DNA of 20,000 nucleotides from an uncultured virus (IMG/VR IMGVR_UViG_3300044611_000703) (Duplodnaviria > Heunggongvirae > Uroviricota > Caudoviricetes), in IMG/VR virus record IMGVR_UViG_3300044611_000703, positions 57,201 through 77,200 of that record; one strand, given 5' to 3'. The notes below the pieces were generated by a model that was not told the DNA's origin, made no database searches, and was given only the letters and a program-made list of their open reading frames with translations. The position numbers were made by a program, and so were the translations under genes. Below are positions 3,789 through 20,000 of the stretch, in pieces. Numbering within the stretch: the stretch's first letter is position 1; every line of letters begins with the position of its first letter.

Positions 3789-4349
3789 ATGAATATTGAT
3801 AATAGACGAGAATATTTAAAAACGGCCTATAGAATGTTTGGTTTAAAAGATGATGAAGGTGGTGTTAATAGGACTCAAGGTTTGTTCATGATGTGTGAAG
3901 ATATTATGAAAGATAATTTTGTTGTTGCTGAAATTGGTTCGTATGCCGGTGTTAGTAGTGAAGTTTTAGCATTACATTGTGAAAAAATATACTGCATCGA
4001 TACTTGGGAAGATTGGAATAATGATGGTATTATTTTCCAAGCTATGGAATTGTTTGATAATATGAAATCATTTTATTCTCACATTAATAAAATACATATG
4101 AGGGGTGATGAGGCCTCTAAAATGTTTCCTGATGAACATTTTGACCTTGTTTATATTGATGCGTCTCATTGGTATGATGATGTAATAAACGATATTAATA
4201 CGTGGTTACCAAAAATTAAAAAAGGTGGTTATTTATCCGGTCATGATTATTTAGAGAATATTGATGTTTTATATGCAGTAAATGACTATTTTGGTAAAAC
4301 ACATTCAATTACGAGATACCCTGATTCAAGTTGGGTAATTAAAAAATAA
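3789..4349 (+). CDS. Class I SAM-dependent methyltransferase (Methyltransf_24-like)
   Basis: VAEIGSYAGVS motif I, YCIDTW, DLVYIDASHWYDDVINDINTWLPKIKKGGYLSGHDY. Confidence 0.85.
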   Translation: MNIDNRREYLKTAYRMFGLKDDEGGVNRTQGLFMMCEDIMKDNFVVAEIGSYAGVSSEVLALHCEKIYCIDTWEDWNNDGIIFQAMELFDNMKSFYSHINKIHMRGDEASKMFPDEHFDLVYIDASHWYDDVINDINTWLPKIKKGGYLSGHDYLENIDVLYAVNDYFGKTHSITRYPDSSWVIKK

Positions 4350-4353
4350 TTTT

Positions 4354-5091
4354 ATGAATATATTAATTCACGGCTCAATGATGGGACCTGGTGGTATTGC
4401 ACATCATATTAAAGAATTTAGTAAAAATCTAAACAAATACCATAATGTTAAGATAAGAAACTTCAATTTAGATACTAATACTTGGAATGGTTTTTATAGT
4501 GGTCCTGATATGTATAAAAACACTAAAGGTTTAGAGGATATTCACCATCAATTATTACATCAACAAAGTTTATGGGTAGATGGTGAGTTAAAAGAATTTC
4601 CACTATTAGGATATGACGAATCATTTGTTCCCGATTTTCACCTTATAATGGCCGAAGCGTATCATCATTATTATTATCAAGATTACGATAAACCAGTTAT
4701 TGCTTACTTCCCTTGGGAAACTACAGAAATGTTAGAAGGTTTTATTGAAAAACTTAAAAAAGTTGATTATATATGGGTTCCAAGTAAATGGCAATTAGAG
4801 GTTTTTGTTAATAATGGAATAGATAGAAATAAAATAACTGTTGTTAATGAGGGTGTTGACCCATCCAAATTTTTTCCCGTTAAAAATAAAAAAAATAAAA
4901 AACTAACAATACTACATATTGGTACTTGGGAATATCGTAAATCATCTTACGAATTAATAAAGTCAATTACTAATGTAATTGGTGATGACCCCTCAGTTGA
5001 ATTTAAATTAGCAATACATGACAAATATCGAGAACAGGAATCACAAGATGAATTGTTTACAAAATATCACATTTTTGGATACATTAAGTGA
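4354..5091 (+). CDS. GT4-family glycosyltransferase, N-terminal part (continues by frameshift into 5018..7447)
   Basis: GPGGIAHH, PWETT, DYIWVPSKWQ, VVNEGVDPSKFFP, ILHIGTWEYRKS. The EGWNLPL donor-binding motif is missing here but appears in the +1 frame just downstream. Confidence 0.8.
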   Translation: MNILIHGSMMGPGGIAHHIKEFSKNLNKYHNVKIRNFNLDTNTWNGFYSGPDMYKNTKGLEDIHHQLLHQQSLWVDGELKEFPLLGYDESFVPDFHLIMAEAYHHYYYQDYDKPVIAYFPWETTEMLEGFIEKLKKVDYIWVPSKWQLEVFVNNGIDRNKITVVNEGVDPSKFFPVKNKKNKKLTILHIGTWEYRKSSYELIKSITNVIGDDPSVEFKLAIHDKYREQESQDELFTKYHIFGYIK

Positions 5092-7447
5092 AGAGGATTA
5101 TATTAATGAAATTAGAAATGCAAATTTATATGTTTCTTGTTCACGCGGTGAGGGTTGGAATCTTCCGTTAATTCAATCATTATCTTCAGGTGTGCCATCC
5201 ATTTACAGTAAATCAACAGGTCAATTAGAATATACTGAAAACTCAATAGGTATTGGTATTGAGATTGTAGGAGAAGAAGACGCTCAAAGAAAATTAATAA
5301 TAAACAACCAAGAATATTTTTGGGAGTTACTACATGACTATTACCCTGGTAAATTATCAGAACCAAATTATACTCAATTTGAGTATGAAGTTATGAAATT
5401 TTATACACAATATAAATTAAATAAACTCTCAGAATATAACAATAAATCATTATTAGATTCACAATATATTCAGAAAAATTTTAATTGGGACTATGTTACT
5501 GAGAAAGCAAATAAAATTTTAGAAAGTTATAATACTAAAAAAAAATCAATTACAATGTCAAACATATATTATTTAATTCACAGTAGTAGTTTTGGAGATA
5601 CGTTAGCGTCAACACCAACTTTACGATATCTTTCTCAATCACATAATGAAAAAATCAATGTTGTGACACATAGTAAAGTTGTATTTAGAGGAAACCCTTA
5701 TGTTGATAATTTACTTTCATTTGACGAATACAATTTAATTGATACATCAAACTCAAGAATATATGAAAGTTTTACGTTTCCCGGAACTTTTGATAAGAAT
5801 GGTATTGAGAAAAAATTCTCACATATTGATACTCGTCAATTACACGCTAATGATTTAGGATTCCAACTTTTACCAGAACAATTGAGTTATGATTTTTATC
5901 CAACATCATTAGAATTAGATATTGACTTACCTAAAGAGTATGTTGTATTACACGTAACAACAAATTGGGCGAACAGAACTTGGAATGATAAAAATTGGAC
6001 AGAATTAATTGATTGGCTTCGTGAAAACAAAATTTATACTGTTTTAATAGGGTCAGGTTATAGAGAAAAATTACATCATTCGTTAGGTGATACATTAGAA
6101 AAATACTGTCCTGTTTTTGAAAATCTTTATGGTTTAGATTTAACCAATCAAGGGACGATGAGTGATATGTGGTGGGTAATTAATAACTCTAAATGTATTG
6201 TAACAATGGATTCCGGGCCTTTACATTTAGCAGGATGTACGAATACCCATATATTACAATTAGGTAGCGCGATACATCCATCATTTAGAGCACCATATAG
6301 ATATGGGACTCAAGAATATAACTACACATATGTTGGAGGAACTTGTAATATATTTTGTAATTCAAATTTATCGTATAATGTTAAAGAGTGGGGACACATT
6401 AATGCCGTTCCACCAATGCCAGGGTGTTTAGAGAAGAAATCAACTTTTGAGTGTCATCCATCTGTTGACCGGGTTAAAGAAAACATTAGTAAAGTTTTGA
6501 ACTCGGAAAATGTTAATAAATTTGACACCATTGTTGAATTGTTTAAAAAAGACGATTTAAATAAAATACACTTTAATTATAAAGTTGACACGGAACTCCC
6601 AATAAAAATGGAGGTGATTGATGTTAACACAGGTTTAAAAAGAGACAACTTTTTTGATGTTGCGAAAAGAAACTATAACGGAATAAATTGGTGGGCACCA
6701 AGTCCGGGTCGTTTAAACGGTTTAGGTAATATTATTATAAACCTATATTTAGATGGTGAATTTTTTGGTTATAAGAAAATGATTATCAATGGGGATAACA
6801 AACTAACAATAGGTGATAAAGAATATAAATTTGAAAATTTAGAAGATAACAATTATTCAACTTATTGGGAGATATTCATAAATAAAGATTATGAATATGA
6901 TGACGAATTTAATGTTCAAAAAAATGATGTTGTTTTAGACATTGGTGGTAATTATGGATTTTTCTCTCTTTACTCACTGGATAAAGGAGCTAAAAAAACA
7001 TATTGTGTTGAACCATTAAAAAAACCATTTAATCATATTTTAGAATTATCTAAAGAATTTCCAATAACACCAATTAATAAAGCAGTTAGTGTTGAAGATG
7101 GTGAAATTACAATGACATTATGTGATGATGTTTCCGCAAGAAATTGTGTGTCAACTTATAATGATTTACTTAATAACACCGGTGATGAAATTATTGTTGA
7201 ATCCATTAATATTAATACCCTTATCAATGAAATTGATGACACAATTAATTATTGCAAAATAGATTGTGAAGGTTCTGAATACGATATTTTTAAAACAATA
7301 ACGTCTAAAAATTTAAAAAAAATAAAACGATATTGTATTGAGACACATAGTGAAGAAATATTAGAGTTAGTGGTTAGTGTTTTATTAAAAAACAATTTTG
7401 ATGTTAAAATTAAAGATAATATGATTTTTGCTAAAAATTTAAATTAG
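5018..7447 (+). CDS. Multidomain protein: GT4 C-terminus + GT9-like glycosyltransferase with 4-Cys motif + FkbM-like methyltransferase
   Basis: SCSRGEGWNLPLIQS (GT4). From in-frame ATG 5555: SSSFGDTLASTP...DSGPLHLAG...CNIFC...CLEKKSTFECH (GT9-like). C-terminal VVLDIGGNYGFFS...YCKIDCEGSEY (FkbM). The start at 5018 is probably not a real start. Confidence 0.8.
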   Translation: MTNIENRNHKMNCLQNITFLDTLSEEDYINEIRNANLYVSCSRGEGWNLPLIQSLSSGVPSIYSKSTGQLEYTENSIGIGIEIVGEEDAQRKLIINNQEYFWELLHDYYPGKLSEPNYTQFEYEVMKFYTQYKLNKLSEYNNKSLLDSQYIQKNFNWDYVTEKANKILESYNTKKKSITMSNIYYLIHSSSFGDTLASTPTLRYLSQSHNEKINVVTHSKVVFRGNPYVDNLLSFDEYNLIDTSNSRIYESFTFPGTFDKNGIEKKFSHIDTRQLHANDLGFQLLPEQLSYDFYPTSLELDIDLPKEYVVLHVTTNWANRTWNDKNWTELIDWLRENKIYTVLIGSGYREKLHHSLGDTLEKYCPVFENLYGLDLTNQGTMSDMWWVINNSKCIVTMDSGPLHLAGCTNTHILQLGSAIHPSFRAPYRYGTQEYNYTYVGGTCNIFCNSNLSYNVKEWGHINAVPPMPGCLEKKSTFECHPSVDRVKENISKVLNSENVNKFDTIVELFKKDDLNKIHFNYKVDTELPIKMEVIDVNTGLKRDNFFDVAKRNYNGINWWAPSPGRLNGLGNIIINLYLDGEFFGYKKMIINGDNKLTIGDKEYKFENLEDNNYSTYWEIFINKDYEYDDEFNVQKNDVVLDIGGNYGFFSLYSLDKGAKKTYCVEPLKKPFNHILELSKEFPITPINKAVSVEDGEITMTLCDDVSARNCVSTYNDLLNNTGDEIIVESININTLINEIDDTINYCKIDCEGSEYDIFKTITSKNLKKIKRYCIETHSEEILELVVSVLLKNNFDVKIKDNMIFAKNLN

Positions 7448-7449
7448 TT

Positions 7450-8601
7450 ATGTTAAAATTTGGAATATACACCACCTTTTATAATTGTGAAAGATTTGTT
7501 GATAGAATATTTAATTCTATCGAACAAATAGATTATGATAATTTTGAATGGCACATTACTGACGATTTTTCAAGTGACAACACTAAAGACATAGTCTTAA
7601 ACCGATTAGAAAATAGTATTTTAAAACATAAAATAAAATATTATGAACAATCTGAAAAAAAACAAATGTATTGGAATCCTCAAGAATTTTTTGATAAAAC
7701 TTTTGATTGGATTGTTTTAGTCGATGCTGATGATGATTTTGATAAAAACTTTTTAAATGTTTATAACTCATTTTTAGAAAACAACAATGATGTGTCTTTA
7801 GTGTCGTCAGATTACTTTAAATTATATGAAGATAGTGGTTCATTACATTCAATCTCATATATCTTAAATAATGATATAATCTCTAACAAAATTAATAATT
7901 ATCACCCATCATGTGATTATCTAAATAATATAAGTTATAGTTGTTTTGGTCATTTAAGGGCGTTTAAAAATATCATAGATAAGTTTGAATTAACAGATGT
8001 GTTGGCGGGTGCTGAAGATAGTTACCACGTATTTTGGTCAAATTCATTTGGGAAATATCTGCATATACCAAGACCTTTATATAAGTGGTATTTACGAGAA
8101 GATTCCGAATCCCACAGAAAAATTGTCCCACATAATTTTAACGCAAATTTTGATATTGCATTAAATAAATTAAATTTAAGTGACGGTGGTATTGATAGTA
8201 GATTTAATGAATTGTATATTGAAACCTCTACTTTAGGGTCCTACCCTATTGGAGAATTACAAAATAAAAACGTATCATTATGGTCTAGAAATATATCTAA
8301 AGGTCAACAGGAAGTTTTACAGAAATTATATTATGATGTTACACTAACATTTAATAATCCTGAATCGGATATCCACTTATTTTCACTTAATAATCTTAAC
8401 GAAAATGTTTTAGAAAAAATACTTCAAAAAATTAAAGGTGGTAAAGTTTTATTTTATTATCAAAACCAAAATTATCATTTATCTAATGAAGATAAAGATG
8501 AAGAATTAGAAAAACAATTAAACAAATATACACCAGTTATAAGTCGTTACTATGGATTTAGTTGGTGGACATATATCAGACATTTTATAATCAAAAATTA
8601 A
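7450..8601 (+). CDS. GT2-family (GT-A) glycosyltransferase with C-terminal extension
   Basis: IYTTFYNCERFV...EWHITDDFSSDNT, VLVDADD (DxD), AEDSY. Confidence 0.85.
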   Translation: MLKFGIYTTFYNCERFVDRIFNSIEQIDYDNFEWHITDDFSSDNTKDIVLNRLENSILKHKIKYYEQSEKKQMYWNPQEFFDKTFDWIVLVDADDDFDKNFLNVYNSFLENNNDVSLVSSDYFKLYEDSGSLHSISYILNNDIISNKINNYHPSCDYLNNISYSCFGHLRAFKNIIDKFELTDVLAGAEDSYHVFWSNSFGKYLHIPRPLYKWYLREDSESHRKIVPHNFNANFDIALNKLNLSDGGIDSRFNELYIETSTLGSYPIGELQNKNVSLWSRNISKGQQEVLQKLYYDVTLTFNNPESDIHLFSLNNLNENVLEKILQKIKGGKVLFYYQNQNYHLSNEDKDEELEKQLNKYTPVISRYYGFSWWTYIRHFIIKN

Positions 8602-8602
8602 T

Positions 8603-9289
8603 ATGAGTAAAATATGTATTTTAACATCGTACACTGACCACATTAGATGGGAAAACTATGGAAAATGTGATTATGGAGATTTATCTTCAATAAATCATCA
8701 TGAATATTCCAATAAACACGGATACTCATATATTAAGGAAATAGTTAAAAACGATGATTATTCTGATTGGCACCCAACTTGGATAAAGATAGACGTACTT
8801 AAAAAGTATTTACCATTATTTGATTATGTTGTGTGGATAGATGCTGACGCAGTATTTGTTAATCAAAATATTAAAATTGAAGATATGATAACTGATGATG
8901 TTGATTTAGTTATCCCTAAACTTGAGGTAGACAGAGTTAGTGGTAATATGTGGACCCACACAACAACCGGATTTATGATATGGAAAAATAGTGAATGGTC
9001 AAACAATATTTTAAACACTTTATGGGACTCCCCAAAACAATTTAAATTTGAATTTTTTCATGAACAATCAAGATTAGATGAATTAATTTATGATAATTTT
9101 AAAATTAATGGTGGTGAAAACATTTTAAATAAAAATACTGTTGATATTGAATATCCTTTATTATTAGGTAATATTAGGGTATTACCATTTTCTTATCATA
9201 GATATTGGGAAGACGGTATAATAAATTATGTGTATCACGCGGGTGGTGACACACCAAGTAAATTAAATAGAATTAAAAAAGTATTATAA
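8603..9289 (+). CDS. GT34-like (GMA12/MNN10 family) glycosyltransferase
   Basis: YSNKHGYSY, WIKIDVL, DYVVWIDADAVF, TGFMIWKNSEWS, EQSRL, VYHAGG. Confidence 0.75.
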   Translation: MSKICILTSYTDHIRWENYGKCDYGDLSSINHHEYSNKHGYSYIKEIVKNDDYSDWHPTWIKIDVLKKYLPLFDYVVWIDADAVFVNQNIKIEDMITDDVDLVIPKLEVDRVSGNMWTHTTTGFMIWKNSEWSNNILNTLWDSPKQFKFEFFHEQSRLDELIYDNFKINGGENILNKNTVDIEYPLLLGNIRVLPFSYHRYWEDGIINYVYHAGGDTPSKLNRIKKVL

Positions 9290-9291
9290 TA

Positions 9292-10182
9292 ATGTTTGAA
9301 CTTAAATATATTGAAAAAAGTGAGGAAGCACCAAATGGAAAAGTTTTGGGTAAAGTTTACGAAGAGGTCTCTTGGTTATATAATGAAAATGAACTTCCTT
9401 TTATATTTGAAGTTTCAGGTGGTGGTAAAATTATTTGGTCAACGAATCTTTATCCCAATATGTGGGCATCTTGGGATACAGTTAATAACGATAATTTTGT
9501 TGTGGTAATTAAAAATAAACATGATGAAATTATATCCGAATTTAAATACGATGTTTGGGTTAATCGAAATGCCACTGAACAATTTTTTGAGACGTGGATT
9601 AAAAAAAATCCAAATACAAAAGGTATTGCAATAGGCACTCATGATGGTACATCCGGAGAATGGGTTAAACACGTAAAAAATAACTCAACTTACGCAGTTT
9701 TAGTTGAGGCATCCAAAAAACAATTTGATGAATTAACACAAAATTATTCAAATTTTAATAATGTTTCATTTAGAAACAATGTTATAACCGGTAATGGTGG
9801 TAATGTTAACTTTTATGAATTCGGAGATGGTTATACAAACACATTAAGTGAAACTCATTGTAAAAAACACGTATTTGATAATGAAGAAATTGTTGTTGTT
9901 AATGTGGATTCAATAAGTATTAATGATTTAATTATACAAGAAAATTTACAAGATACTTTAGATTGGTTACATTTAGACACTGAAGCTATTGATGACGAAA
10001 TTATAATGTCATTAGATTTTAGTAAAGTCGTCAAACCAAAATTAATCGTTTTTGAAACTATAAATTTTTGTGAAGAAAGAACAGGTAGTAGTGAAAGGAT
10101 TGATAAACTTTTTGATTGGTTAAAAATGAATGGTTATAAAGTCAAATACGATTTTTGGAATTCATTCTCCTTTTTAGAATAA
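9292..10182 (+). CDS. FkbM-like methyltransferase with N-terminal accessory domain
   Basis: IAIGTHDGTSGE, VLVEAS, LDWLHLDTEAIDDEII...KPKLIVFE, preceded by a ~90-aa beta-rich N-terminal domain. Confidence 0.7.
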   Translation: MFELKYIEKSEEAPNGKVLGKVYEEVSWLYNENELPFIFEVSGGGKIIWSTNLYPNMWASWDTVNNDNFVVVIKNKHDEIISEFKYDVWVNRNATEQFFETWIKKNPNTKGIAIGTHDGTSGEWVKHVKNNSTYAVLVEASKKQFDELTQNYSNFNNVSFRNNVITGNGGNVNFYEFGDGYTNTLSETHCKKHVFDNEEIVVVNVDSISINDLIIQENLQDTLDWLHLDTEAIDDEIIMSLDFSKVVKPKLIVFETINFCEERTGSSERIDKLFDWLKMNGYKVKYDFWNSFSFLE

Positions 10183-10183
10183 A

Positions 10184-11152
10184 ATGAAAACATTATTAAT
10201 AATTACACCACATATGTCAACAGGTGGATGCCCTCAAGTGGTATCTAAAAAAGTTGAACTACTTAAAGATGTTTATAACGTAATAGTTGTAGAATGGGAA
10301 TGTGTTGCGTGGAATTATATTGTTCAAAGAAATAATGTTATAAACATGATTGGGGATAAATTTATAACATTGAATGAAGATAAAGAAACGGAATTGTTTG
10401 AACTAATTGATAACCATGATTCACCACACATTATGATTGAAGAATTTTCAGAAACATTTATGTCAACTGAAATTATGGAACGGTTATATGATAAAAATAG
10501 GACTTATAAAATATTTGAAACCACACATAGTTCCCACTCTATGCCTGATTGGAAAAGGTTTTTACCTGATAAATTCATTTTTGTATCGCCTTACTCATTG
10601 AAAGTTTTTGAAGAATTGGGTGTACCAATGGATTTAATTGAATATCCTATAGAGATTAAACAACCAAATAAAATCGATAACATTATTAAATTAGGATTAG
10701 ACCCAAATTATAAACACATAATCAATATTGGTTTATTCACTTGGGGTAAAAATCAAGGGTATGCCTTTGAAATCGCGAGAATGTTAGAAAGATACGAAAT
10801 AACGTTTCATTTTATTGGTAATCAAGCCAGCAACTTTAAAGATTATTGGGAACCAATAATAGAGGATAAACCTAATAATTGTATTATTTGGGGGGAAAGA
10901 AATGATGTTGATTTATTTATCCAATCTTGCGACGTACATTTATTTACATCAAGATTAGAACTTAATCCAATATCAATTAAAGAAAGTTTAGAGTATGAAA
11001 AACCAACATTAATGTTTAATTTAGAAACTTATTTGGATAAATACGATAACACTAAAAATATACATTTTTTAACGGGAGATTTATTTAATGATTGTAACAC
11101 TCTACTTCGTGTATTAAACTTAACAGAATTAGAACAACCTAAAATAAATTAA
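10184..11152 (+). CDS. GT4-family glycosyltransferase
   Basis: TPHMSTGGCPQ, FIFVSPY, INIGLFTWGKNQ, WGERNDV, DVHLFTSRLELNPISIKES. Confidence 0.8.
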   Translation: MKTLLIITPHMSTGGCPQVVSKKVELLKDVYNVIVVEWECVAWNYIVQRNNVINMIGDKFITLNEDKETELFELIDNHDSPHIMIEEFSETFMSTEIMERLYDKNRTYKIFETTHSSHSMPDWKRFLPDKFIFVSPYSLKVFEELGVPMDLIEYPIEIKQPNKIDNIIKLGLDPNYKHIINIGLFTWGKNQGYAFEIARMLERYEITFHFIGNQASNFKDYWEPIIEDKPNNCIIWGERNDVDLFIQSCDVHLFTSRLELNPISIKESLEYEKPTLMFNLETYLDKYDNTKNIHFLTGDLFNDCNTLLRVLNLTELEQPKIN

Positions 11153-11194
11153 TTTAAAATTACACAATTTAAAAATATCAACTAAAATTACAAC

Positions 11195-11839
11195 ATGGAA
11201 GAAAAATTTAAAAACATAGACGAACAAAGATTGTGGAATGACGAAAAAATGTGGGAGAATGATGGACATGAATGGTCAAAATCTTTTGGCACCACAGAAA
11301 ATCTTTGGAATAATTATATCTTTGATGATATTAAAGAATTTAGAGGTAAAAAAATATTAGAGATTGCTCCCGGTTATGGTAGAATAACTCAATTTCTTTC
11401 AATTTTGGCATCCAAACTAATTGTTATTGATTTAAATGAAAATTGTATAAATAAAACAAGAGAAAAATTAGGACACCATGTGTCAGAATATTTTGTTAAC
11501 AATGGGAATGATTTAACACAAATTAGTGATGATAGTCAAGATTTAGTATTTTCATACGATTCTTTTGTTCACATACACAAAAACGTTATTGATGATTATC
11601 TAAAAGAAATATATCGAGTTTTAAAACCCGGTGGTAAATCATATATTCACCATTCATGGTTATATTTAGGTAATGATTATTCATTTAAAAATATTGCCGG
11701 TAGAGCAGATATGAACCCTGATTTATTTAAATCTTTGGTTGAAAAACATAATATGAAAATTGTTGAACAAAAAACCATAAAATTTAATCCATTAAGTAAT
11801 TGGGATGGTACGGATAGTATAACTATATTTACAAAATAA
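11195..11839 (+). CDS. Class I SAM-dependent methyltransferase (Methyltransf_11/25-like)
   Basis: ILEIAPGYGRIT, VIDLNE, DLVFSYDSFVHI, EIYRVLKPGG. Confidence 0.85.
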   Translation: MEEKFKNIDEQRLWNDEKMWENDGHEWSKSFGTTENLWNNYIFDDIKEFRGKKILEIAPGYGRITQFLSILASKLIVIDLNENCINKTREKLGHHVSEYFVNNGNDLTQISDDSQDLVFSYDSFVHIHKNVIDDYLKEIYRVLKPGGKSYIHHSWLYLGNDYSFKNIAGRADMNPDLFKSLVEKHNMKIVEQKTIKFNPLSNWDGTDSITIFTK

Positions 11840-11843
11840 TATA

Positions 11844-13016
11844 ATGATGAACATAATTAAAATTAATGATAGTGAGTTTGATGTTACCTCACCAACAAAC
11901 AACGAGTTTACAAAACAATATATTGAATCTTTTGGTGATGAAATAAATGTCAGTGTTGAGTGGTCTCATGTTAATGGATTTTATTTAAATTTAAAATCTA
12001 ACACTAATGAAGAGTTTGATGTTGAAATATTTGACAATAATGACGTTTTATTATATAAAAGTAAATTAAGTAACAATATGTTCTGTCGAACATATAGACA
12101 ATATTTTAATGGTATTAAATATAGAATTTCTAAAGGTTCTTTTATTATTAAAGAAGAGACAATTTCATTTAAAGGTAAAAAAGTTTTTATAACGTTTGAA
12201 TCCTCTTCATTAGGTGACACCATCTCTTGGATTCCTTATTGTGATGAGTTTAGAAAGAAACATGATTGTGAAGTGGTTGTTTCAACATTTTTAAATCATT
12301 TATTTGAAAAATCATATCCAAATTTACAATTCGTTAAACCTGGTCAAGTTGTTAATAATATTCACGCAATGTTTAAAGTAGGGTGGTTTTATAATGATTC
12401 ATTAGAACCCGTAAATCCGGCAACAATCCCATTACAAAAAACCATAACTAATATATTAGGTTTGGAACATAAAGAAATTAAAACACACATTGATTTTGAA
12501 CCTATTGAACGACCTTATAAAGAAAAATATATTACAATAGCTACTAATTCAACTGCTGGGTGTAAATTATGGAATAACCCATCAGGTTGGTCCGAATTAG
12601 TTAAATATCTAATAGATAAAGGATATAAAGTCATTAATGTTTCAAAAAATGGTGACACCTATAAAGGTGTTGAGAATCTTAAAGATGATTCATTAGGAAA
12701 TACAATGAATGTTATTCACCATAGTGATTTCTTTATTGGACTGTCAAGTGGACTATCTTGGTTATCATGGGCGTTAAATAAAAATGTTGTGATGATATCA
12801 AACTTTACTTTACCGGACCATGAGTTTATTATTAATTGTACCAGAATTATCAACAAAAACTCATGTAATGGATGTTGGAACAATCCCGAATACACATTTG
12901 ATAAAGGAGATTGGAATTGGTGTCCAATAAATAAAGGAACTAAAAAACAATTTGAATGTCATAAATCAATAACCTCTAAAATGGTTATTGACCAAATACA
13001 AGATTTAATAAAATGA
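11844..13016 (+). CDS. AAH/TibC-family (autotransporter strand-loop-strand) O-heptosyltransferase homolog
   Basis: N-terminal beta domain, then VFITFESSSLGDTISWIPY, KLWNNPSGW, FFIGLSSGLSWLSWA, VMISNFTLPDHEF, and the iron-finger-type CNGCWN...WCP...QFECHKSIT. Confidence 0.85.
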   Translation: MMNIIKINDSEFDVTSPTNNEFTKQYIESFGDEINVSVEWSHVNGFYLNLKSNTNEEFDVEIFDNNDVLLYKSKLSNNMFCRTYRQYFNGIKYRISKGSFIIKEETISFKGKKVFITFESSSLGDTISWIPYCDEFRKKHDCEVVVSTFLNHLFEKSYPNLQFVKPGQVVNNIHAMFKVGWFYNDSLEPVNPATIPLQKTITNILGLEHKEIKTHIDFEPIERPYKEKYITIATNSTAGCKLWNNPSGWSELVKYLIDKGYKVINVSKNGDTYKGVENLKDDSLGNTMNVIHHSDFFIGLSSGLSWLSWALNKNVVMISNFTLPDHEFIINCTRIINKNSCNGCWNNPEYTFDKGDWNWCPINKGTKKQFECHKSITSKMVIDQIQDLIK

Positions 13017-13690
13017 AATTAAACGATTTTGATTGGGGATGGATGGAGCAAACCGAAGAAGGTCTCTCTCATAAAGAACTTATAACCAGAGAAACATTTA
13101 TCGATAAAATATATGAAAAATTTTTTGAGGTATCTGAAGGGGATATTGTATTAGATTTTGGTGCCAGTGTTGGCCCATTTACGTATAGTATTTTATCTAA
13201 AAAACCAAAACATGTATATTGTCTTGAACCAAGTGAACATGAATTTCCTACATTAGTTAAGAATACGATTGGTTATCCGGTAACACCTATATTAAAAGGT
13301 GTTTCCAATACGAATACATATACCGATTGTGATTACATATATGGTGGGACAAAACAAATGGAAGGGATTACATTTAAAAAACTTTGCGAATTATATAATT
13401 TAGAAACCATAGATTTTTTAAAGACCGATTGTGAGGGTGGTGAATATGATATATTCAATGATGAAAATTTTGAATTTATTAAAAACAATGTTAAAAAAAT
13501 TGTTGGAGAATGGCATTTAGGTGGACCTATTTTAAACGAAAAATTTAAAAAATTTAGAGACACTTACCTACAATATTTTGTAAATTTTGAGGTCTACTCA
13601 ATTGATGGTGTTAATATTAAATGGAATTTAATGTCTGATAATTTTTTAAAACATTACACAGAAATAATAATATACATAGATAACATTTAA
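13013..13690 (+). CDS. FkbM-family methyltransferase
   Basis: IVLDFGASVGPFT, YCLEPS, IDFLKTDCEGGEY, IVGEWH. 4-nt overlap with the upstream gene. Confidence 0.85.
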   Translation: MKLNDFDWGWMEQTEEGLSHKELITRETFIDKIYEKFFEVSEGDIVLDFGASVGPFTYSILSKKPKHVYCLEPSEHEFPTLVKNTIGYPVTPILKGVSNTNTYTDCDYIYGGTKQMEGITFKKLCELYNLETIDFLKTDCEGGEYDIFNDENFEFIKNNVKKIVGEWHLGGPILNEKFKKFRDTYLQYFVNFEVYSIDGVNIKWNLMSDNFLKHYTEIIIYIDNI

Positions 13691-13694
13691 TAAA

Positions 13695-14513
13695 ATGAAG
13701 AAAATATTTTTTAACTCATCTCTACCAAGAAGTGGAAGCACACTAATACAGAATTTGTTAGCACAAAACCCTGAAATTTATTCAACACCAACATCAGGTT
13801 TGGTAGATTTTGTAATTGCCTGTAAAAATAACTATAATCATTCACAAGCATTTCAAGCACAAGACCAAGATGAAATGACCAAAGCATTTGTTGATTTTTG
13901 TAAAGATGGAATGCAAGGTTATTTTAAACGATTAACTGATAAACCAATCGTTATGGATAAAAGTAGAGAGTGGGGAATTAACTATGGTTTAATAGAAATG
14001 TTACAAGATGAACCAAAAATAATTTGTATGGTTAGAGACATCAGAGCCATCTATTCTTCTATGGAAAAAAATTTCCGTAAAAATCCTCATAGAGAAAATG
14101 GTATTCAAAATCCGGCTCAATTAGTTGGAACAACTTTAAATAAACGTGTTGATATTTGGGCTAGTGGTATTCCTGTTGGTGTTGCAATTGATAGATTACA
14201 AGATATCATTCAACAAAACATTGATAATAAAATGTTATTTATTCGTTATGAAGATTTAATGGATAATCCGGTAGACGAAATGACAAGGATATATGAATAT
14301 TTGGGAATTCCATATTATGAAGGACACGACTTTGAGAATATATCTCAATTAACTCATGAAGATGATAGAGTACATGGGATATTTGGTGACCATCAATTAA
14401 GACCTAAATTTGAAAGAAAACCGGATGATTATATGGAAGTGTTGGGGTATGAGATATCAATGAACATTAAAAATCATTATAAATGGTTTTATGATTATTT
14501 TGGATATGTATAA
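13695..14513 (+). CDS. PAPS-dependent sulfotransferase (Sulfotransfer_3-like)
   Basis: 5'-PSB loop SLPRSGSTL, DKSR, 3'-PB motif KIICMVRDIRAIYSS, FIRYEDLMDNP. Confidence 0.9.
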   Translation: MKKIFFNSSLPRSGSTLIQNLLAQNPEIYSTPTSGLVDFVIACKNNYNHSQAFQAQDQDEMTKAFVDFCKDGMQGYFKRLTDKPIVMDKSREWGINYGLIEMLQDEPKIICMVRDIRAIYSSMEKNFRKNPHRENGIQNPAQLVGTTLNKRVDIWASGIPVGVAIDRLQDIIQQNIDNKMLFIRYEDLMDNPVDEMTRIYEYLGIPYYEGHDFENISQLTHEDDRVHGIFGDHQLRPKFERKPDDYMEVLGYEISMNIKNHYKWFYDYFGYV

Positions 14514-14525
14514 AAAATTTTAATT

Positions 14526-14984
14526 ATGATATATTGGTTTACAGGTCAACCCGGAGCAGGTAAGACCACATTAGCAAAACAACTTAAAGATTATCTACAC
14601 CCAAGTAATACAATACTTGTTGATGGTGATGATATTAGAGATGTCTTTCAAAATAAAGATTACTCTGAAGTAGGAAGAAGAAAAAATATTGAGAAAGCAC
14701 AAGACATTTCATTATTTTTAGATTCAAAAGGATTTGATGTGATAGTTTCATTAGTATCACCTTATAAAGACCAACGTGATGAATTTAAAAACAAACATAA
14801 TGTTTTAGAGTTTTATGTTCATACCGAAGATATTAGAGGTAGAGAAGATTATCATGTTTCCAATTATGAACCACCAACAGAAAACTTTGTGGATGTAAAC
14901 ACAACAAATGTTGCCGAACAAAAATCGTTAGGTAACATTATTAATAAAATTAATGAATTTAAAACAAATGGAAAATTGGAGTAA
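14526..14984 (+). CDS. cysC: Adenylyl-sulfate (APS) kinase
   Basis: WFTGQPGAGKTT P-loop, LVDGDDIR, YSEVGRRKNI, VIVSLVSPY, YEPP. Short (152 aa), with a reduced lid region. Confidence 0.9.
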   Translation: MIYWFTGQPGAGKTTLAKQLKDYLHPSNTILVDGDDIRDVFQNKDYSEVGRRKNIEKAQDISLFLDSKGFDVIVSLVSPYKDQRDEFKNKHNVLEFYVHTEDIRGREDYHVSNYEPPTENFVDVNTTNVAEQKSLGNIINKINEFKTNGKLE

Positions 14985-15363
14985 AAAAATACATGTAGGT
15001 TCATCATTACCATCAAAGGATGGTCAATTCGCAATGTTTGTTGGTAGATGGCAACCATTACATTTGGGTCACCAAGAATTGTTTAAAAGAGCAATGGATG
15101 AAGGTAAGAATGTTTTAATCTGTATTAGAGATATACAACCGGACGAGAAAAATCCGTTTACTGCAGAACAAGTTAGAGAGAACATCTCAAACTTTTATTC
15201 AGAAGAAGAAAGAGTTAAAGTTATGGTTATTCCTGATATTTGTTCAATTGAGTTTGGTAGAGGCGTTGGATATGATATTATTGAACATATTCCACCACAA
15301 GAAATTCACGATATATCTGCAACAAAGATTAGAGAACAAATGAAAAAAGAAGGTAAGTTATGA
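14968..15363 (+). CDS. Small HxGH (cytidylyltransferase-like) nucleotidyltransferase; candidate minimal sulfate adenylyltransferase
   Basis: FVGRWQPLHLGH, NPFT, ISATKIR motifs. Likely start is ATG 14968 (track gives 14953). Overlaps the cysC stop. Confidence 0.75.
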   Translation: MENWSKKIHVGSSLPSKDGQFAMFVGRWQPLHLGHQELFKRAMDEGKNVLICIRDIQPDEKNPFTAEQVRENISNFYSEEERVKVMVIPDICSIEFGRGVGYDIIEHIPPQEIHDISATKIREQMKKEGKL

Positions 15364-15593
15364 TTGATGTTAAATTAAGATATAATACACTTTGTGATGA
15401 TAATCACTTGTTTTGGAGAATATTAATTGATGGTGTTGAAAACGTTGCATCAAATGTAATTTTTGAAATACCTCCCCATACAACAAGAGATATTGTCTAT
15501 GACCCATCAAGAAACACAGATGTGGATAAACACCACCTTAGCTGCACCGCAAATGAGGTGATTTGGAAAGGTGATGTAGTAATTGTTAGATAA
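15360..15593 (+). CDS. Hypothetical protein (77 aa)
   Basis: Overlaps both neighbours (translational coupling). No family recognised. Confidence 0.65.
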   Translation: MIDVKLRYNTLCDDNHLFWRILIDGVENVASNVIFEIPPHTTRDIVYDPSRNTDVDKHHLSCTANEVIWKGDVVIVR

Positions 15594-15811
15594 TGAAAGT
15601 AGAAGTTAAAAGACACGTAGGTAAAGCCATAAGTTATAGAATGTTAGGGACATTACAAACCTGTATAATCTCTTACCTATTTACAGGTAATTTTTTAGTT
15701 TCAGGTAGTATTGGATTGACAGAATTATGTATAAAACCATTAATATATTTTCTACACGAAAGAGTGTGGTATAAATGGATAAAATTTGGATTAAAAGAAA
15801 ATAAAGAATAA
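15593..15811 (+). CDS. DUF2061-family small membrane protein
   Basis: KRHVGKAISYRMLGT...GLTELCIKPLIYFLHERVW matches the DUF2061 pattern KAxSxRxxGT...YxxHERxW. Two hydrophobic segments. Confidence 0.85.
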   Translation: MKVEVKRHVGKAISYRMLGTLQTCIISYLFTGNFLVSGSIGLTELCIKPLIYFLHERVWYKWIKFGLKENKE

Positions 15812-15812
15812 T

Positions 15813-16688
15813 ATGAATGTAATTTTTCAAATAGATGGGGGACTTGGTAAGAATATCATGGCGACCGCAGTATTAAAAGCTATAAAAAAACAATATAGTA
15901 AAGCAAATATAATTGTTGTTAGTAGTTATCCGGATGTTTTCATCGGTAATCCAAATGTTAATAAAGTATTAACTCATGAAACAATGAGTGGAATATATGA
16001 AAAATATATTATGGGTAAAGAATCTAAAGTATTTGTTACAGACCCATACACAACATCAAGTTATATCACCGAAGAAAAACATCTTATTCAGTTATGGTGT
16101 GAAATGTATGGTTTAAATTATGATGGAGAAAAACCGGAGTTGTTTATTACTAAAGCCGAAAGACAATATTTTGAATCGTTCTATAAATTAGACAAACCAA
16201 TTATGGTTATTCAACCACACGGGGGAGCGTTTAATCAACCTTTAAAATATAGTTGGACAAGAGATATTCCCCAACCAATAATGCAAGACATTATTAATCA
16301 TTATGCTAAAGATTATGCTATATTACACGTTAAAAGAGAAGACCAAATAATCTATGAAAATACATTTCAAGCATTAGATTCTTTCAGAAGTATCGCGGTG
16401 TTATTAAGTATGTCAACAAAAAGATTATTAATTGATAGTAGTGTAATGCACATCGCCACGGCTTTAAACTTACCATCTGTCGTTACTTGGGTTGGGACTA
16501 ACCCTAAAGTATTTGGTTTTGATATCCATAATAATATTATTGCAAATGAACCAACAAAAAAACCTGATTTGAATCATCCTCATTATTCTAAATATCTATT
16601 ATTCCAAGACATAAGTAGTATACCTTATAATGACTTATACGAAGTATTTGACATTCAGAAAATAGTTGACGCTATTGACCAACAATAA
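15813..16688 (+). CDS. GT9-like (heptosyltransferase-like) glycosyltransferase
   Basis: IDGGLGKNIMATAVLKAIKKQY, YPDVFIGNPNV, LLIDSSVMHIATALNLPSVVTW. Confidence 0.75.
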   Translation: MNVIFQIDGGLGKNIMATAVLKAIKKQYSKANIIVVSSYPDVFIGNPNVNKVLTHETMSGIYEKYIMGKESKVFVTDPYTTSSYITEEKHLIQLWCEMYGLNYDGEKPELFITKAERQYFESFYKLDKPIMVIQPHGGAFNQPLKYSWTRDIPQPIMQDIINHYAKDYAILHVKREDQIIYENTFQALDSFRSIAVLLSMSTKRLLIDSSVMHIATALNLPSVVTWVGTNPKVFGFDIHNNIIANEPTKKPDLNHPHYSKYLLFQDISSIPYNDLYEVFDIQKIVDAIDQQ

Positions 16689-16724
16689 AAAAAACCCCCA
16701 CGTTAAGTGAGGGTTTTTATTTTT
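16687..16724. terminator. Bidirectional intrinsic terminator between convergent genes
   Basis: AAAAACCCCCAC-gttaa-GTGAGGGTTTTT hairpin (12-bp stem, one mismatch) with an A-tract on the left and a T-tract on the right, between stops at 16688 (+) and 16723 (-). Confidence 0.8.
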
Positions 16725-19700
16725 AAATATTTTTTAATCCGGGTTTTAATCTCTCAGTACCTTTCCAATATTTTTTAGCGTGAGCATCTTTTCTTGTACC
16801 AATGACTAATACATTATATTCCATATCTAAATTTGCGGTTATAAGTATTTTAGTTAATTCTTCATTAATTTCACCATAACCAATTCCAAATCCATTTATA
16901 GGTGATATCCAAACTTGAGTATCTTCATTTAAAAATTTATAATAATCAGGTAAAATTATTTCACCAATTCCATCAATAATAGTAACTTTAAATCTGTAAA
17001 TGTTATCACCAGCAGTTGGACTTTCAACAAATGAGTGAATTAATTGTGTTGTTTTAGTTTTTGATGGGTCAGGATGATTAATTACAAAAGAACCTCCCGA
17101 CTTATTTACTTGACCTGCTGAACAAAGATTATTTACAAAAGTATAATCACTTAGATTACCAGTTATATTAGAACCAATAATGTGTGTATTACTATAAGGG
17201 CCACTAATAGTATTATAGGCTCCACCTAAAATACTGTTGCAATTATCCGTATTTTTACCGGACATAGTATTACAAAAACCACCAACTATTACCGAACATG
17301 AGGTGTCGGCAATAGTATTAGTAGAACCACCACCAATAAAATTACAATTTACGTTAGAATTATAGCATGAATTAGCTATTTTATTTTTATAACCCCCAAC
17401 TACTATATTATTTTTTAGACAGTTATATGAGTTTGACCCTGTAGTATATATAGCATTTCCAGCACCACCAAAAATTATATTATTACACAACACAGTTGCG
17501 GTACCACAATATGAGGAACAAATTGTATTTGATTGTCCACCAACAATTGTTGAGTGTGGTGCACTACAAATTCGATTGGATGACCCACCGACTATAATTC
17601 CGTAATTAGAGTTATAATTTATTCCTCTGATGTAATTACTTTGGCCACCACCAATAAAACTTCTATTCGAACCATAAGTTCCTCCAATACAATTAGAAAA
17701 ACCACCAACAATTGATGAGTAATTTGTTATAATACAATTTTTGTAACCACCTCCAATTGTTGAAGCTGTACCATTGTTGTAATTTTGACAACCACCACCA
17801 ATAAATGATTTATAACCAACTGATTGATTTTGAACACCACCACCTATTGTTGACCATGCTTGCACAGCACTATTACATTGACCACCTGCAACGGTTGTAA
17901 GGCTACCGGAGGTGGCATTCTGACTACCACCACCAATAAATGAATTTTGTCCATCACCAGTGTTTTTACAACCACCACCTATTGTTGAAAAATTACCCGA
18001 CGCGGTATTTTCACTACCACCCCCAATAGATGAGTAATTACATGAGGTATTCTTAGTACCTCCGGCAACTACTCCTGCAAAGGAACACACTATATTTTTA
18101 TATCCACCACCGATTATTGAGTGTCGTGAACCACCACAAATACAATTTTTGTAACCACCACCGATTGTTGCGTGAGTAGTCGTATTTTTACCACCACCTA
18201 ATAATATAGTATTCGTTGAACCTCCACCAATAGTCGAATGAGAAGCACAATTAGCGTTAGCAAAACCACCTCCAATTACGTTATAACCACAATTAATAAA
18301 ATTACTACGACCACCACCTATGGCAGCAGCAGCACCCCAAGCTTTATTATCACATCCACCGGCAACTGTAGATAAACCATAAGTTGCAGTAGTGTTAGAA
18401 AGACCACCACCAACTGTTGAATGACAACCTGATGAGACATTATTTTGACCACCACCAATTGTTGAACAATTTCCAATCGCACTATTCGATTTACCACCAG
18501 CAATTATTGAATAATTACCTCCCGAAGTATTATATCTTCCACTTAAAGAACCACTATAAATATTGGAAGCGATATTCCCAACACCACATCTAACAGATGC
18601 TGATGGTACACCTCCTGCGATAATAACCGCTGGCGAACCACCAGCACTTGTTCCACTTGAACCTGACGTTCCCGATGTTCCCGGTGCACCTGACGCTCCT
18701 GAAGACCCTGAAGTTCCACTTGTTCCTGATGCTCCTGAAGAACCTGATGTTCCTGATGTACCCGGCGCACCTGATGCTCCTGAAGAACCTGATGTTCCAC
18801 TTGTTCCTGACGCTCCTGAAGAACCTGATGTTCCTGATGTACCCGGCGCACCTGATGCTCCTGAAGAACCTGATGTTCCACTTGTTCCTGATGCTCCTGA
18901 AGAACCTGATGTTCCACTTGTTCCTGATGCTCCTGAAGACCCTGATGTTCCTGAAGTTCCTGACGCACCACTTACACCTGAAGAACCACTTGTTCCACTT
19001 GAACCTGAAGTTCCTGAAGTCCCACTATTACCTGAAGAACCTGATGTTCCTGATGAACCACTTGTTCCCGAAGTTCCACTATTACCTGAAGAACCTGAAG
19101 TTCCTGAAGTCCCACTATTACCTGAAGAACCTGATGTTCCTGATGAACCACTTGTTCCCGAAGTTCCACTATTACCTGACGAACCTGAAGTTCCTGAAGT
19201 TCCACTATTACCTGACGAACCTGATGTTCCTGATGAACCACTTGTTCCCGAAGTTCCACTATTACCTGAAGAACCGCTAGTTCCCGATGTTCCACTATTA
19301 CCTGATGAACCGCTAGTACCGCTTGAACCTGATGTTCCTGAAGAACCACTTGTTCCACTTGAACCTGAAGTTCCTGAAGTTCCGCTATTACCTGAAGAAC
19401 CGCTAGTTCCACTTGAACCTGATGAACCACTTGTTCCACTAGACCCTGATGTTCCTGAAGTTCCACTATTACCTGAAGAACCTGAAGTTCCTGAAGTTCC
19501 GCTATTACCTGAAGAACCGCTAGTTCCACTAGACCCTGATGAACCACTTGTACCGCTAGAACCTGATGAACCACTTGTTCCGCTAGAACCTGAAGTACCT
19601 GACGTTCCACTATTACCTGACGAACCACTTGTACCGCTAGAACCTGAAGTTCCTGATGAACCGCTTGTACCACTTGAACCTGAAGTTCCTGAAGTTCCGC

Positions 19701-20000
19701 TATTACCTGAAGAACCGCTAGTTCCACTTGAACCTGATGAACCACTTGTCCCTGATGAACCGGATGTCCCTGAAGTTCCACTATTACCTGATGAACCACT
19801 TGTACCGCTAGAACCTGAAGTACCTGACGTTCCACTATTACCTGATGAACCACTTGTACCGCTAGAACCTGAAGTACCTGACGTTCCACTATTACCTGAA
19901 GAACCACTTGTCCCTGATGAACCGGATGTCCCTGAAGTTCCACTATTACCTGATGAACCACTTGTACCGCTAGAACCTGATGAACCACTTGTTCCACTAG
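16723..20000 (-). CDS. Large fibre-like protein: Gly-X-Ser collagen-like tract + STIGGGxxN beta-helix-like repeats + C-terminal chaperone-like domain (5' end outside window)
   Basis: The frame of track ORF 16723..18090 has no stop from 18090 to 20000 (checked codon by codon), so GTG 18090 is internal. At least 1091 aa lie in the window. Confidence 0.9.
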   Translation of the reverse strand, partial: SGTSGSSGSSGTSGSSGNSGTSGTSGSSGTSGSSGNSGTSGTSGSSGTSGSSGNSGTSGTSGSSGTSGSSGNSGTSGTSGSSGTSGSSGSSGTSGSSGNSGTSGTSGSSGTSGSSGTSGSSGTSGSSGNSGTSGTSGSSGTSGSSGSSGTSGSSGSSGTSGSSGNSGTSGTSGSSGNSGTSGTSGSSGTSGSSGSSGTSGSSGNSGTSGTSGSSGTSGSSGTSGSSGTSGSSGNSGTSGTSGSSGNSGTSGTSGSSGTSGSSGNSGTSGTSGSSGNSGTSGTSGSSGTSGSSGNSGTSGTSGSSGNSGTSGTSGSSGTSGSSGNSGTSGTSGSSGTSGSSGVSGASGTSGTSGSSGASGTSGTSGSSGASGTSGTSGSSGASGAPGTSGTSGSSGASGTSGTSGSSGASGAPGTSGTSGSSGASGTSGTSGSSGASGAPGTSGTSGSSGTSAGGSPAVIIAGGVPSASVRCGVGNIASNIYSGSLSGRYNTSGGNYSIIAGGKSNSAIGNCSTIGGGQNNVSSGCHSTVGGGLSNTTATYGLSTVAGGCDNKAWGAAAAIGGGRSNFINCGYNVIGGGFANANCASHSTIGGGSTNTILLGGGKNTTTHATIGGGYKNCICGGSRHSIIGGGYKNIVCSFAGVVAGGTKNTSCNYSSIGGGSENTASGNFSTIGGGCKNTGDGQNSFIGGGSQNATSGSLTTVAGGQCNSAVQAWSTIGGGVQNQSVGYKSFIGGGCQNYNNGTASTIGGGYKNCIITNYSSIVGGFSNCIGGTYGSNRSFIGGGQSNYIRGINYNSNYGIIVGGSSNRICSAPHSTIVGGQSNTICSSYCGTATVLCNNIIFGGAGNAIYTTGSNSYNCLKNNIVVGGYKNKIANSCYNSNVNCNFIGGGSTNTIADTSCSVIVGGFCNTMSGKNTDNCNSILGGAYNTISGPYSNTHIIGSNITGNLSDYTFVNNLCSAGQVNKSGGSFVINHPDPSKTKTTQLIHSFVESPTAGDNIYRFKVTIIDGIGEIILPDYYKFLNEDTQVWISPINGFGIGYGEINEELTKILITANLDMEYNVLVIGTRKDAHAKKYWKGTERLKPGLKNI
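17200..18560 (-). repeat. About 28 degenerate ~15-aa repeats, consensus S(T/F/I)IGGGxxNxxxGxx
   Basis: Translation: SIIAGGKSN, STIGGGQNN, STVGGGLSN ... SFIGGGCQN, STIGGGYKN ... NSILGGAYN. Confidence 0.9.
18646..20000 (-). repeat. 9-bp-unit coding tandem repeat, 150 Gly-X-Y triplets (GTS/GSS/GNS/GAS, 3x GAP, 1x GVS), with 81-, 90- and 54-bp higher-order duplications
   Basis: Gly codons keep a 9-nt register from 18652 to 19993. A 90-bp unit occurs x3 at 19001-19270, an 81-bp period around 18721-18900, and a 54-bp period at 19801/19855. Confidence 0.95.

Follow-up and report, generated by a model that had tools for sequence, protein, structure and literature searches.

A 131-residue HxGH nucleotidyltransferase paired with APS kinase in phages and archaea as a candidate minimal ATP sulfurylase

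In the window, a 20,000-nucleotide stretch forming the last 20 kb of a 77.2-kb record of an uncultured virus (IMG/VR IMGVR_UViG_3300044611_000703), we found a gene at 14968..15363 (+) that encodes a 131-aa HxGH (HIGH-signature) nucleotidyltransferase and candidate minimal ATP sulfurylase. The family to which this protein belongs is probably a new minimal ATP sulfurylase of nicotinamide mononucleotide (NMN) adenylyltransferase (NMNAT)-like descent, which supplies adenosine 5'-phosphosulfate (APS) for phage synthesis of 3'-phosphoadenosine 5'-phosphosulfate (PAPS) and for glycan sulfation. The observations that lead us to this view are the fold, motifs, synteny, gene fusions and phyletic pattern of the family. 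To our knowledge, textbooks recognize only two kinds of ATP sulfurylase, Sat and CysDN.

The gene overlaps the 3' end of an APS-kinase-like open reading frame (ORF) by 17 nt, or by 32 nt if translation starts at an alternative ATG at 14953, which would give a protein of 136 aa. The overlap with cysC and the two motifs reported in the initial annotation are thus borne out at the sequence level, with the ATP-binding HxGH signature GRWQPLHLGH at residues 26-35 (15043..15072, +) and the second nucleotidyltransferase signature ISATKIR at residues 116-122 (15313..15333, +). An alignment of 60 diverse homologs (A2) adds a family-specific loop, GRGVGY, at residues 97-102 (15256..15273, +). H32 is present in all 60 sequences and G97 is invariant, with G26, R27, Q29, G34, and H35 of the first signature and R98, V100, G101, and Y102 of the loop each conserved in at least 90%. 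Among 27 phage homologs (alignment A1), 35 columns are invariant, including GRWQPLH..H, R54, N62-P63, IPDI, FGR.VGY, PP, and SATK.R. The A1 profile has 2563 matches at E ≤ 1e-3 among 1.84 billion representatives, 800 of them at E ≤ 1e-10, and profile matching placed 7997 of 8000 scored candidates at E ≤ 1e-3; a remote search of a phage collection with window positions 13600-16700 returned no match. Since the homologs are many, extend over 281 viral stretches and share 35 invariant columns, the ORF is real and not a chance reading frame.

The association with APS kinase extends throughout the phage homologs. We counted gene neighbors in the best 80 of the 281 related IMG/VR stretches, which are mutual relatives and not independent samples, and found that 78 of 80 have an APS kinase homolog within the 1 kb preceding the HxGH gene, on the same strand; the other two loci have less than 520 bases of upstream sequence, ended by the contig edge. 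In 67 of the 80 loci a same-strand DUF2061 gene follows within 1 kb, and a sulfotransferase homolog is found within the locus in 44. The HxGH protein varies least of the three across loci (median identity 76%; kinase 50%, DUF2061 49%). Gene fusions tell the same story: in a Pfam scan of 55 clearly longer homologs, picked from the 150 best of the 2563 matches, 32 contain an APS-kinase domain (PF01583; best match 9.5e-69 over the full profile), placed N-terminally in 23 and C-terminally in 9. HxGH::DUF2061 fusions also occur (P0142 and P0263), one longer homolog is fused to a methyltransferase, and a few have odd partners. The PHROGs family phrog_10255 itself spans both phage genes, with positions 3-92 falling on the kinase and 134-229 on the HxGH protein. 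Database names follow one partner or the other, the fusions being called "adenylyl-sulfate kinase" and the ESM Atlas phage cluster "putative NMNAT". Separately, a metagenomic protein of 432 aa (P0232) has, fused to the HxGH domain, a region that matches DHHA1 weakly (E 7.4e-5; 23.6 bits against a cut-off of 25.9). DHH/DHHA1 enzymes include phosphatases of 3'-phosphoadenosine 5'-phosphate (pAp), which would make this fusion a further connection to the PAPS cycle.

The known enzymes for the preceding step are missing from these phages as far as they were sampled. The initial annotation had pointed out that neither sat nor cysDN lies in the window, and profile scans agree, detecting no Sat above cut-off and no PAPS_reduct/CysD anywhere on the 77.2-kb record, the window included; the only PF01747 (ATP-sulfurylase) signal there is the HxGH ORF itself, below threshold. 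Twenty of the largest related phage records, 6 of which are at least 90% complete, give the same picture: none carries PAPS_reduct/CysD, none carries Sat above cut-off, and their sub-threshold PF01747 matches are the HxGH genes only.

A genome search with one of the fused proteins (P0163) led to two loci, L085 and L086, and we then sampled 401 small genomes from the phylum of the first genome found with this protein; the examined loci of this sample bear archaeal hallmarks (AglB/STT3, archaellin). The HxGH family is present, as a full-length match at E ≤ 2e-31, in 13 of the 401 genomes, APS kinase in 48, Sat over cut-off in 23, and a CysD-like gene (E ≤ 1e-30, all under the curated cut-off) in 45; another type of ORF, mostly of ~165-230 aa and matching the first half of the profile only, occurs in 58 genomes and was read as NMNAT-type. 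All 13 carriers of the family fall among the 48 genomes with APS kinase (Fisher p = 2e-13). These 48 comprise 31 with Sat or a CysD-like gene, 9 with HxGH only, and 8 with none of the three. Within them, Sat or a CysD-like gene is rarer with the HxGH family than without it (4 of 13 vs 27 of 35; p = 0.0055), as is Sat alone (0 of 13 vs 17 of 35; p = 0.0016), in tests that are uncorrected for shared ancestry and concern genomes of unreported completeness. A simpler comparison, mutual exclusion of the family and Sat over all 401 genomes, was rejected: with Sat in 23 genomes and the family in 13, zero overlap is close to chance, and the test was therefore conditioned on APS-kinase genomes. The counts include unpublished genomes, namely G381 (among the eight with none), G264 and G417 (CysD-like), and G265 and G381 (NMNAT-type), and dropping these leaves the overall picture as it is. 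Neither Sat nor CysD was detected in 9 of the 13 carriers. One carrier, G197, consists of a 1,000,545-base contig for a 1.0-Mb genome, in which no Sat or CysD was found, and it has the fusion together with a sulfotransferase, a GT2 glycosyltransferase, and an ABC transporter.

The operons of these genomes indicate which step the domain may serve. A recurrent order, cysQ-like (Inositol_P), HxGH::APSK-like fusion, and standalone APS kinase (APSK), is found in L122, L124, and L125, and also in L123, where the second kinase is known from a separate APS-kinase search; AglB, a flippase, glycosyltransferases, and sulfotransferases lie near these archaeal-type operons. Sister genomes without the family (L132 and L133) have cysQ-like, cysD, cysN::APSK-like, and standalone APSK in turn, followed in L132 by a sulfotransferase, and five more genomes, as judged from the APS-kinase and CysD searches, have a 600-630-aa ORF with a partial APSK match adjoining a standalone APSK and a CysD-like gene on the same contig. 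From the matching gene orders, the HxGH domain stands where CysD and the CysN GTPase stand. CysDN and CysN::CysC (NodQ type) thus share with the family both the slot between cysQ-like and APSK and the fusion to a degenerate APSK-like domain, but they differ in having an unrelated fold, and the HxGH protein has no GTPase and so no GTP coupling.

The degeneration of the fused kinase-like domain follows a pattern. In four genomes with a second, intact APSK, it has lost DGD (LDSKILR, LDGSILR, IDSKLLR, and LDGGILR), whereas it keeps LDGDxxR in four genomes without a second APSK; the CysN-fused APSK-like domain of L132 is likewise degenerate (INAGTMR). Since DGD is lost where a second APSK exists, the HxGH domain is the conserved, necessary part of the fusion, and the pathway step otherwise without an enzyme is sulfate adenylylation. 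As a side observation, the CysN and HxGH fusions with degenerate DGD, each placed before an intact APSK, recall fungal ATP sulfurylase, which has a regulatory APSK-like domain.

On its predicted model, the HxGH protein is a HIGH-signature nucleotidyltransferase with a Rossmann-like alpha/beta fold. The AlphaFold2 model built from A2 is a single domain (predicted local distance difference test, pLDDT, 94.4; predicted template modeling score, pTM, 0.85), and the sequence passes the CTP_transf_like family PF01467 (33.7 bits vs a cut-off of 21). Archaeal NMNAT and phosphopantetheine adenylyltransferase (PPAT) are the top Foldseek matches over ~80 columns (NMNAT E 3.4e-4), and a structural search against representatives ranks PPAT (Z 10.2), NMNAT (10.0), and NadM (9.3-9.0) ahead of Thermus thermophilus ATP sulfurylase 1v47 (Z 7.7, rank 9) and other Sat structures (5.1-5.8); class I tRNA synthetases also appear among the fold matches. 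In a PDB profile search with A1, only NadM/archaeal NMNAT was convincing (1.5e-7). NMNAT is therefore among the nearest relatives by sequence and by fold, which upholds the reading of GRxQPxHxGH as NadM/NMNAT-like in the initial annotation. Archaeal and NadM NMNATs (1f9a, 1ej2/1m8j, and 2qjt) share with the HxGH protein this motif, SxTxxR, and the Rossmann-like core.

Taken at face value, these matches and the automatic labels, including that of the ESM Atlas cluster, would make the protein an NMN (or nicotinic acid mononucleotide) adenylyltransferase producing NAD during infection, but we regard this as very unlikely. The NMNAT alignment is limited to the N-terminal half (residues 22-94); beyond it there is only a non-significant SxT stretch, in which ISATKIR aligns to SGTEVR of NMNAT, and the GRGVGY loop is left unaligned. 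The region after strand 4 is much shorter in the HxGH protein, which holds the GRxVGY loop there instead, is ~40 residues shorter overall, and lacks the helices that follow this strand. In NMNAT these helices shape the NMN pocket. The best-scoring NCBIfam models for the protein are those for NMNAT, yet the scores lie far under their cut-offs (NF002243, 37.6 vs 127; TIGR01527, 31.6 vs 181.2). Its genomic partners are sulfur-activation genes, above all APS kinase, and not NAD genes, with NAPRTase/NAMPT found in 0 of 10 phage records, and three archaeal carriers (G245, G250, and G311) hold a separate NMNAT-type gene beside the HxGH family.

Several points weigh against an ATP sulfurylase, in addition to the limits of the phyletic tests given above. 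The nearest characterized relatives are NMNAT and PPAT, not Sat, and the lineage of the family is nearer to them as well. The match to PF01747 stays below threshold (20.5 bits vs 24.3, E 3.4e-4) and covers profile positions 29-91 only, and no Sat chain was found at E ≤ 1 in the PDB profile search. In favor of a likeness to Sat, besides the E value of the PF01747 match, hhalign aligned A2 over the whole domain with A6, an alignment of ten archaeal Sat catalytic domains drawn from the phylum of the 401-genome sample (probability 65%, E 5.9e-5, 118 columns), placing HxGH on HRAH, G..R..GVG on GRDHAGVG, and ISATKIR on ISGTxxR; the match of the GR loop to Sat GRDHAGVG, the loop that contacts the sulfate of APS in Sat, is suggestive only, being gapped there and of modest probability. 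The genomic evidence has its own exceptions. A CysD-like gene occurs together with the HxGH family in 4 of the 13 carriers, and in L085, labeled as an Acidobacteriota metagenome-assembled genome, the HxGH-APSK fusion is divergent to adjoining cysD and cysN and also lies next to an ABC-2 exporter and sulfotransferase-glycosyltransferase fusions; the coexistence with cysD and cysN means that the domain does not replace them everywhere. Members in L126 and L129 sit in glycan/nucleotide-sugar clusters with no adjacent APS kinase, and no sulfotransferase was found within the 12.7 kb examined around the fusion in L086. Finally, all copies of the phage kinase, including the homologs in L005-L067, lack the ~25-residue lid KGLYxKAxxGEIxxFTG of canonical APS kinases, and the activity of the phage kinase is therefore uncertain.

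The relationship to Sat is thus one of shared superfamily and proposed reaction, with the HxGH family pairing or fusing with APS kinase as Sat does in PAPS synthases. Sat (PF01747; 1v47, yeast 1j70, and Aquifex 2gks) has a catalytic domain of ~200 aa behind an N-terminal PUA-like domain and a QxRNxxHxxH motif (FQTRNxxHRAH in A6), whereas the HxGH domain has ~110-130 aa and GRWQPLHLGH, and the whole phage protein, at 131 aa and one modeled domain, has no PUA-like part. Small size, a different motif, a sub-threshold Pfam score, and a weaker fold match together indicate a separate lineage and not a truncated Sat. The initial annotation had proposed a stripped-down ATP sulfurylase; its idea of APS supply gains support from the tie of the homologs to cysC, from the absence of sat and cysD in the scans of this and the 20 related phage records, and from the CysDN slot in cellular operons, but a cut-down Sat does not fit a protein whose nearest relatives are NMNAT and PPAT.

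The glycan setting raises another alternative, a sugar- or polyol-phosphate nucleotidyltransferase (TagD/HldC-like) making the donor for GT9 and other glycosyltransferases. The protein is of TagD-like size, its gene shares a glycan island with three GT9-like genes (Pfam), TagD (Z 6.7) and HldC (Z 5.9) are among its fold matches, and its relatives in L126, L129, and L086 belong to nucleotide-sugar clusters of archaeal and SAR11 genomes. The last of these, a Pelagibacteraceae single-cell genome, encodes at 7995-8774 a 259-aa protein in which HxGH is fused to a P-loop kinase with weak likeness to APSK, surrounded by NTP_transferase, two CTP_transf_3, an epimerase, and a radical SAM-SPASM gene. 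However, NMNAT and PPAT match the fold better than TagD and HldC do, 32 of the 55 longer homologs scanned are fused to APS kinase and none to a sugar kinase, all 13 archaeal carriers have APS kinase, and the domain takes the place of CysDN in operons. We consider such an activity quite unlikely, and genomic context does not favour either the NMNAT or the sugar-nucleotide alternative.

The domain could instead have some other role in the PAPS pathway, for example regulation or scaffolding through binding of APS or PAPS, or an adenylyl transfer using APS or pAp. Such a role would fit the presence of CysDN beside the domain in L085 and of CysD-like genes in four of the 13 carriers, as well as the frequent joining of the domain to a degenerate, probably regulatory, APSK-like domain. 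Inactive partner domains do occur in known sulfurylase/kinase proteins, such as 3cr8, which is among the structural matches. Yet the near-invariant HxGH and SxTxxR signatures argue for catalysis, and with a noncatalytic or different role the pathway would be left without a first step in the nine of 13 carriers that have APSK but no detected Sat or CysD; this role is unlikely.

If the family is an ATP sulfurylase, its reaction would be ATP + sulfate -> APS + pyrophosphate, after which the upstream lid-less APS kinase would convert APS to PAPS, and the neighboring sulfotransferase might use PAPS to sulfate a glycan made by the surrounding glycosyl- and methyltransferases, possibly on an adjacent Ser/Thr/Gly-rich fiber. 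The reaction itself and the assignment of residues to substrates are what we infer here: HxGH and SATKIR would bind ATP, the role they have throughout the family, and sulfate may be bound by R54, R98, and the GRxVGY loop, in a pocket that would be far smaller than the one holding NMN in NMNAT. The two-step logic has parallels. PPAT (CoaD, 4nah), the top structural match, works with dephospho-CoA kinase in an analogous adenylyl transfer followed by 3'-phosphorylation by a P-loop kinase, but its sequence similarity is marginal (E 0.2-0.8) and no CoA-pathway context was seen for the HxGH family. Bifunctional PAPS synthases (metazoan PAPSS1/2, 1x6v; Aquifex Sat-APSK, 2gks) have the same two steps in one chain as the fused HxGH homologs, but their sulfurylase module is far larger and of another family, and in the phage the halves are separate overlapping genes.

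Going further, we lean, by a slight balance of probability, to a broader picture in which the family stands beside Sat and CysDN as a third class of ATP sulfurylase that arose independently, by descent from NMNAT-like adenylyltransferases, has no GTPase partner and, at ~110-130 residues, is the smallest known. Together, the HxGH protein, lid-less APSK and DUF2061 would make up a minimal PAPS synthase, possibly tethered to the membrane, by which lake phages would sulfate their own fiber glycans whatever the sulfur metabolism of the host. Archaea, and possibly SAR11-type bacteria, in which no known sulfate-activating enzyme is seen would obtain PAPS from the same module. A literature search, with most subscription journals outside its reach, found no paper describing such an enzyme, an NMNAT- or cytidylyltransferase-like ATP sulfurylase, or phage PAPS synthesis. 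Many genomes and phages now appear to have APS kinase without a source of APS, and if our interpretation is true, a third kind of sulfurylase, roughly one third as large as a Sat catalytic domain, would alter how their capacity for sulfate assimilation and sulfation is read from sequence. Phages could then carry a full PAPS supply, making sulfation of virion or host-surface glycans concrete and testable, and a very compact enzyme would be available for PAPS regeneration in enzymatic sulfation.

The partner genes in the window lie on the plus strand. The APS-kinase-like P-loop kinase (14526..14984, 152 aa; PF01583 2.3e-16) is preceded by a sulfotransferase (13695..14513; PF13469 3.2e-19, PF00685 4e-15), presumed to use PAPS. 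The kinase matches solved APS kinases over residues 3-93 (~4e-10); its P-loop, DGD, and SPY motifs are preserved, as are Arg and Asn in DRxxNI. A complex prediction for the kinase (A5) and the HxGH protein (A2) scored 0.00, which counts neither way. Downstream of the HxGH gene lie a 77-aa ORF (15360..15593), which has no family in Pfam, NCBIfam, or PHROGs, and a gene for a 72-aa DUF2061 small membrane protein (15593..15811; PF09834 6.6e-19), with a GT9-like gene 3' of it. Homologs of the 77-aa ORF occur in 15 of the 80 phage loci, mostly between the HxGH and DUF2061 genes, and two weak matches (27-28% identity) sit upstream of HxGH. A search for longer forms of DUF2061 gave two proteins, with no extra domain found in either, and the parts of the literature mentioning DUF2061 that were available give it no function; one speculation is that it tethers the module to the membrane.

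The record has an estimated CheckV completeness of 23%, and G+C content is ~29-31%. PHROGs matches in the rest of the record include tail sheath, tail tube, baseplate wedge and hub, a UvsX-like recombinase, ribonucleotide reductase, a DnaB-like helicase, and DNA polymerase, a set of tail and replication genes that indicates a large myovirus-type phage. The glycan island spans 3789-16688 and is dense in glycosyl- and methyltransferases (Pfam). Beyond it, an ORF on the minus strand (16723-19998), open at the window end and more than 1091 aa long, has ~600 residues of G-[ST]-S-G-[STN]-S-G repeats; Gly-rich "IGGG..N" repeats come next, and the C-terminal domain has no Pfam match. It is probably a fiber, and its position beside the GT9-like and sulfation genes makes it a candidate target of glycosylation and sulfation.

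Short contigs from metatranscriptome-labeled libraries match parts of the operon, X19 at 13600-14114 and 14446-14623 (0 differences) and at 15163-15317 (7 differences), and X22 at 15332-15428 (0 differences); DNA carry-over is possible, and contigs from RNA libraries were not counted as proof of expression. DNA nearly identical to 13600-16700 is also present in many lake-water metagenome runs of several years, with 18 of the 24 listed runs containing at least half of the sampled words, 7 of these 18 being possible sources. Elsewhere in the glycan island, an ORF with a Glyco_transf_4 N-domain (4354-5091, +) overlaps by 74 nt an 809-aa ORF (5018-7447, +) that contains, in order, a Glycos_transf_1 C-domain, GT9, and an FkbM methyltransferase, and the two may together represent a GT4-family gene, split or frameshifted, that is joined to a triple fusion.

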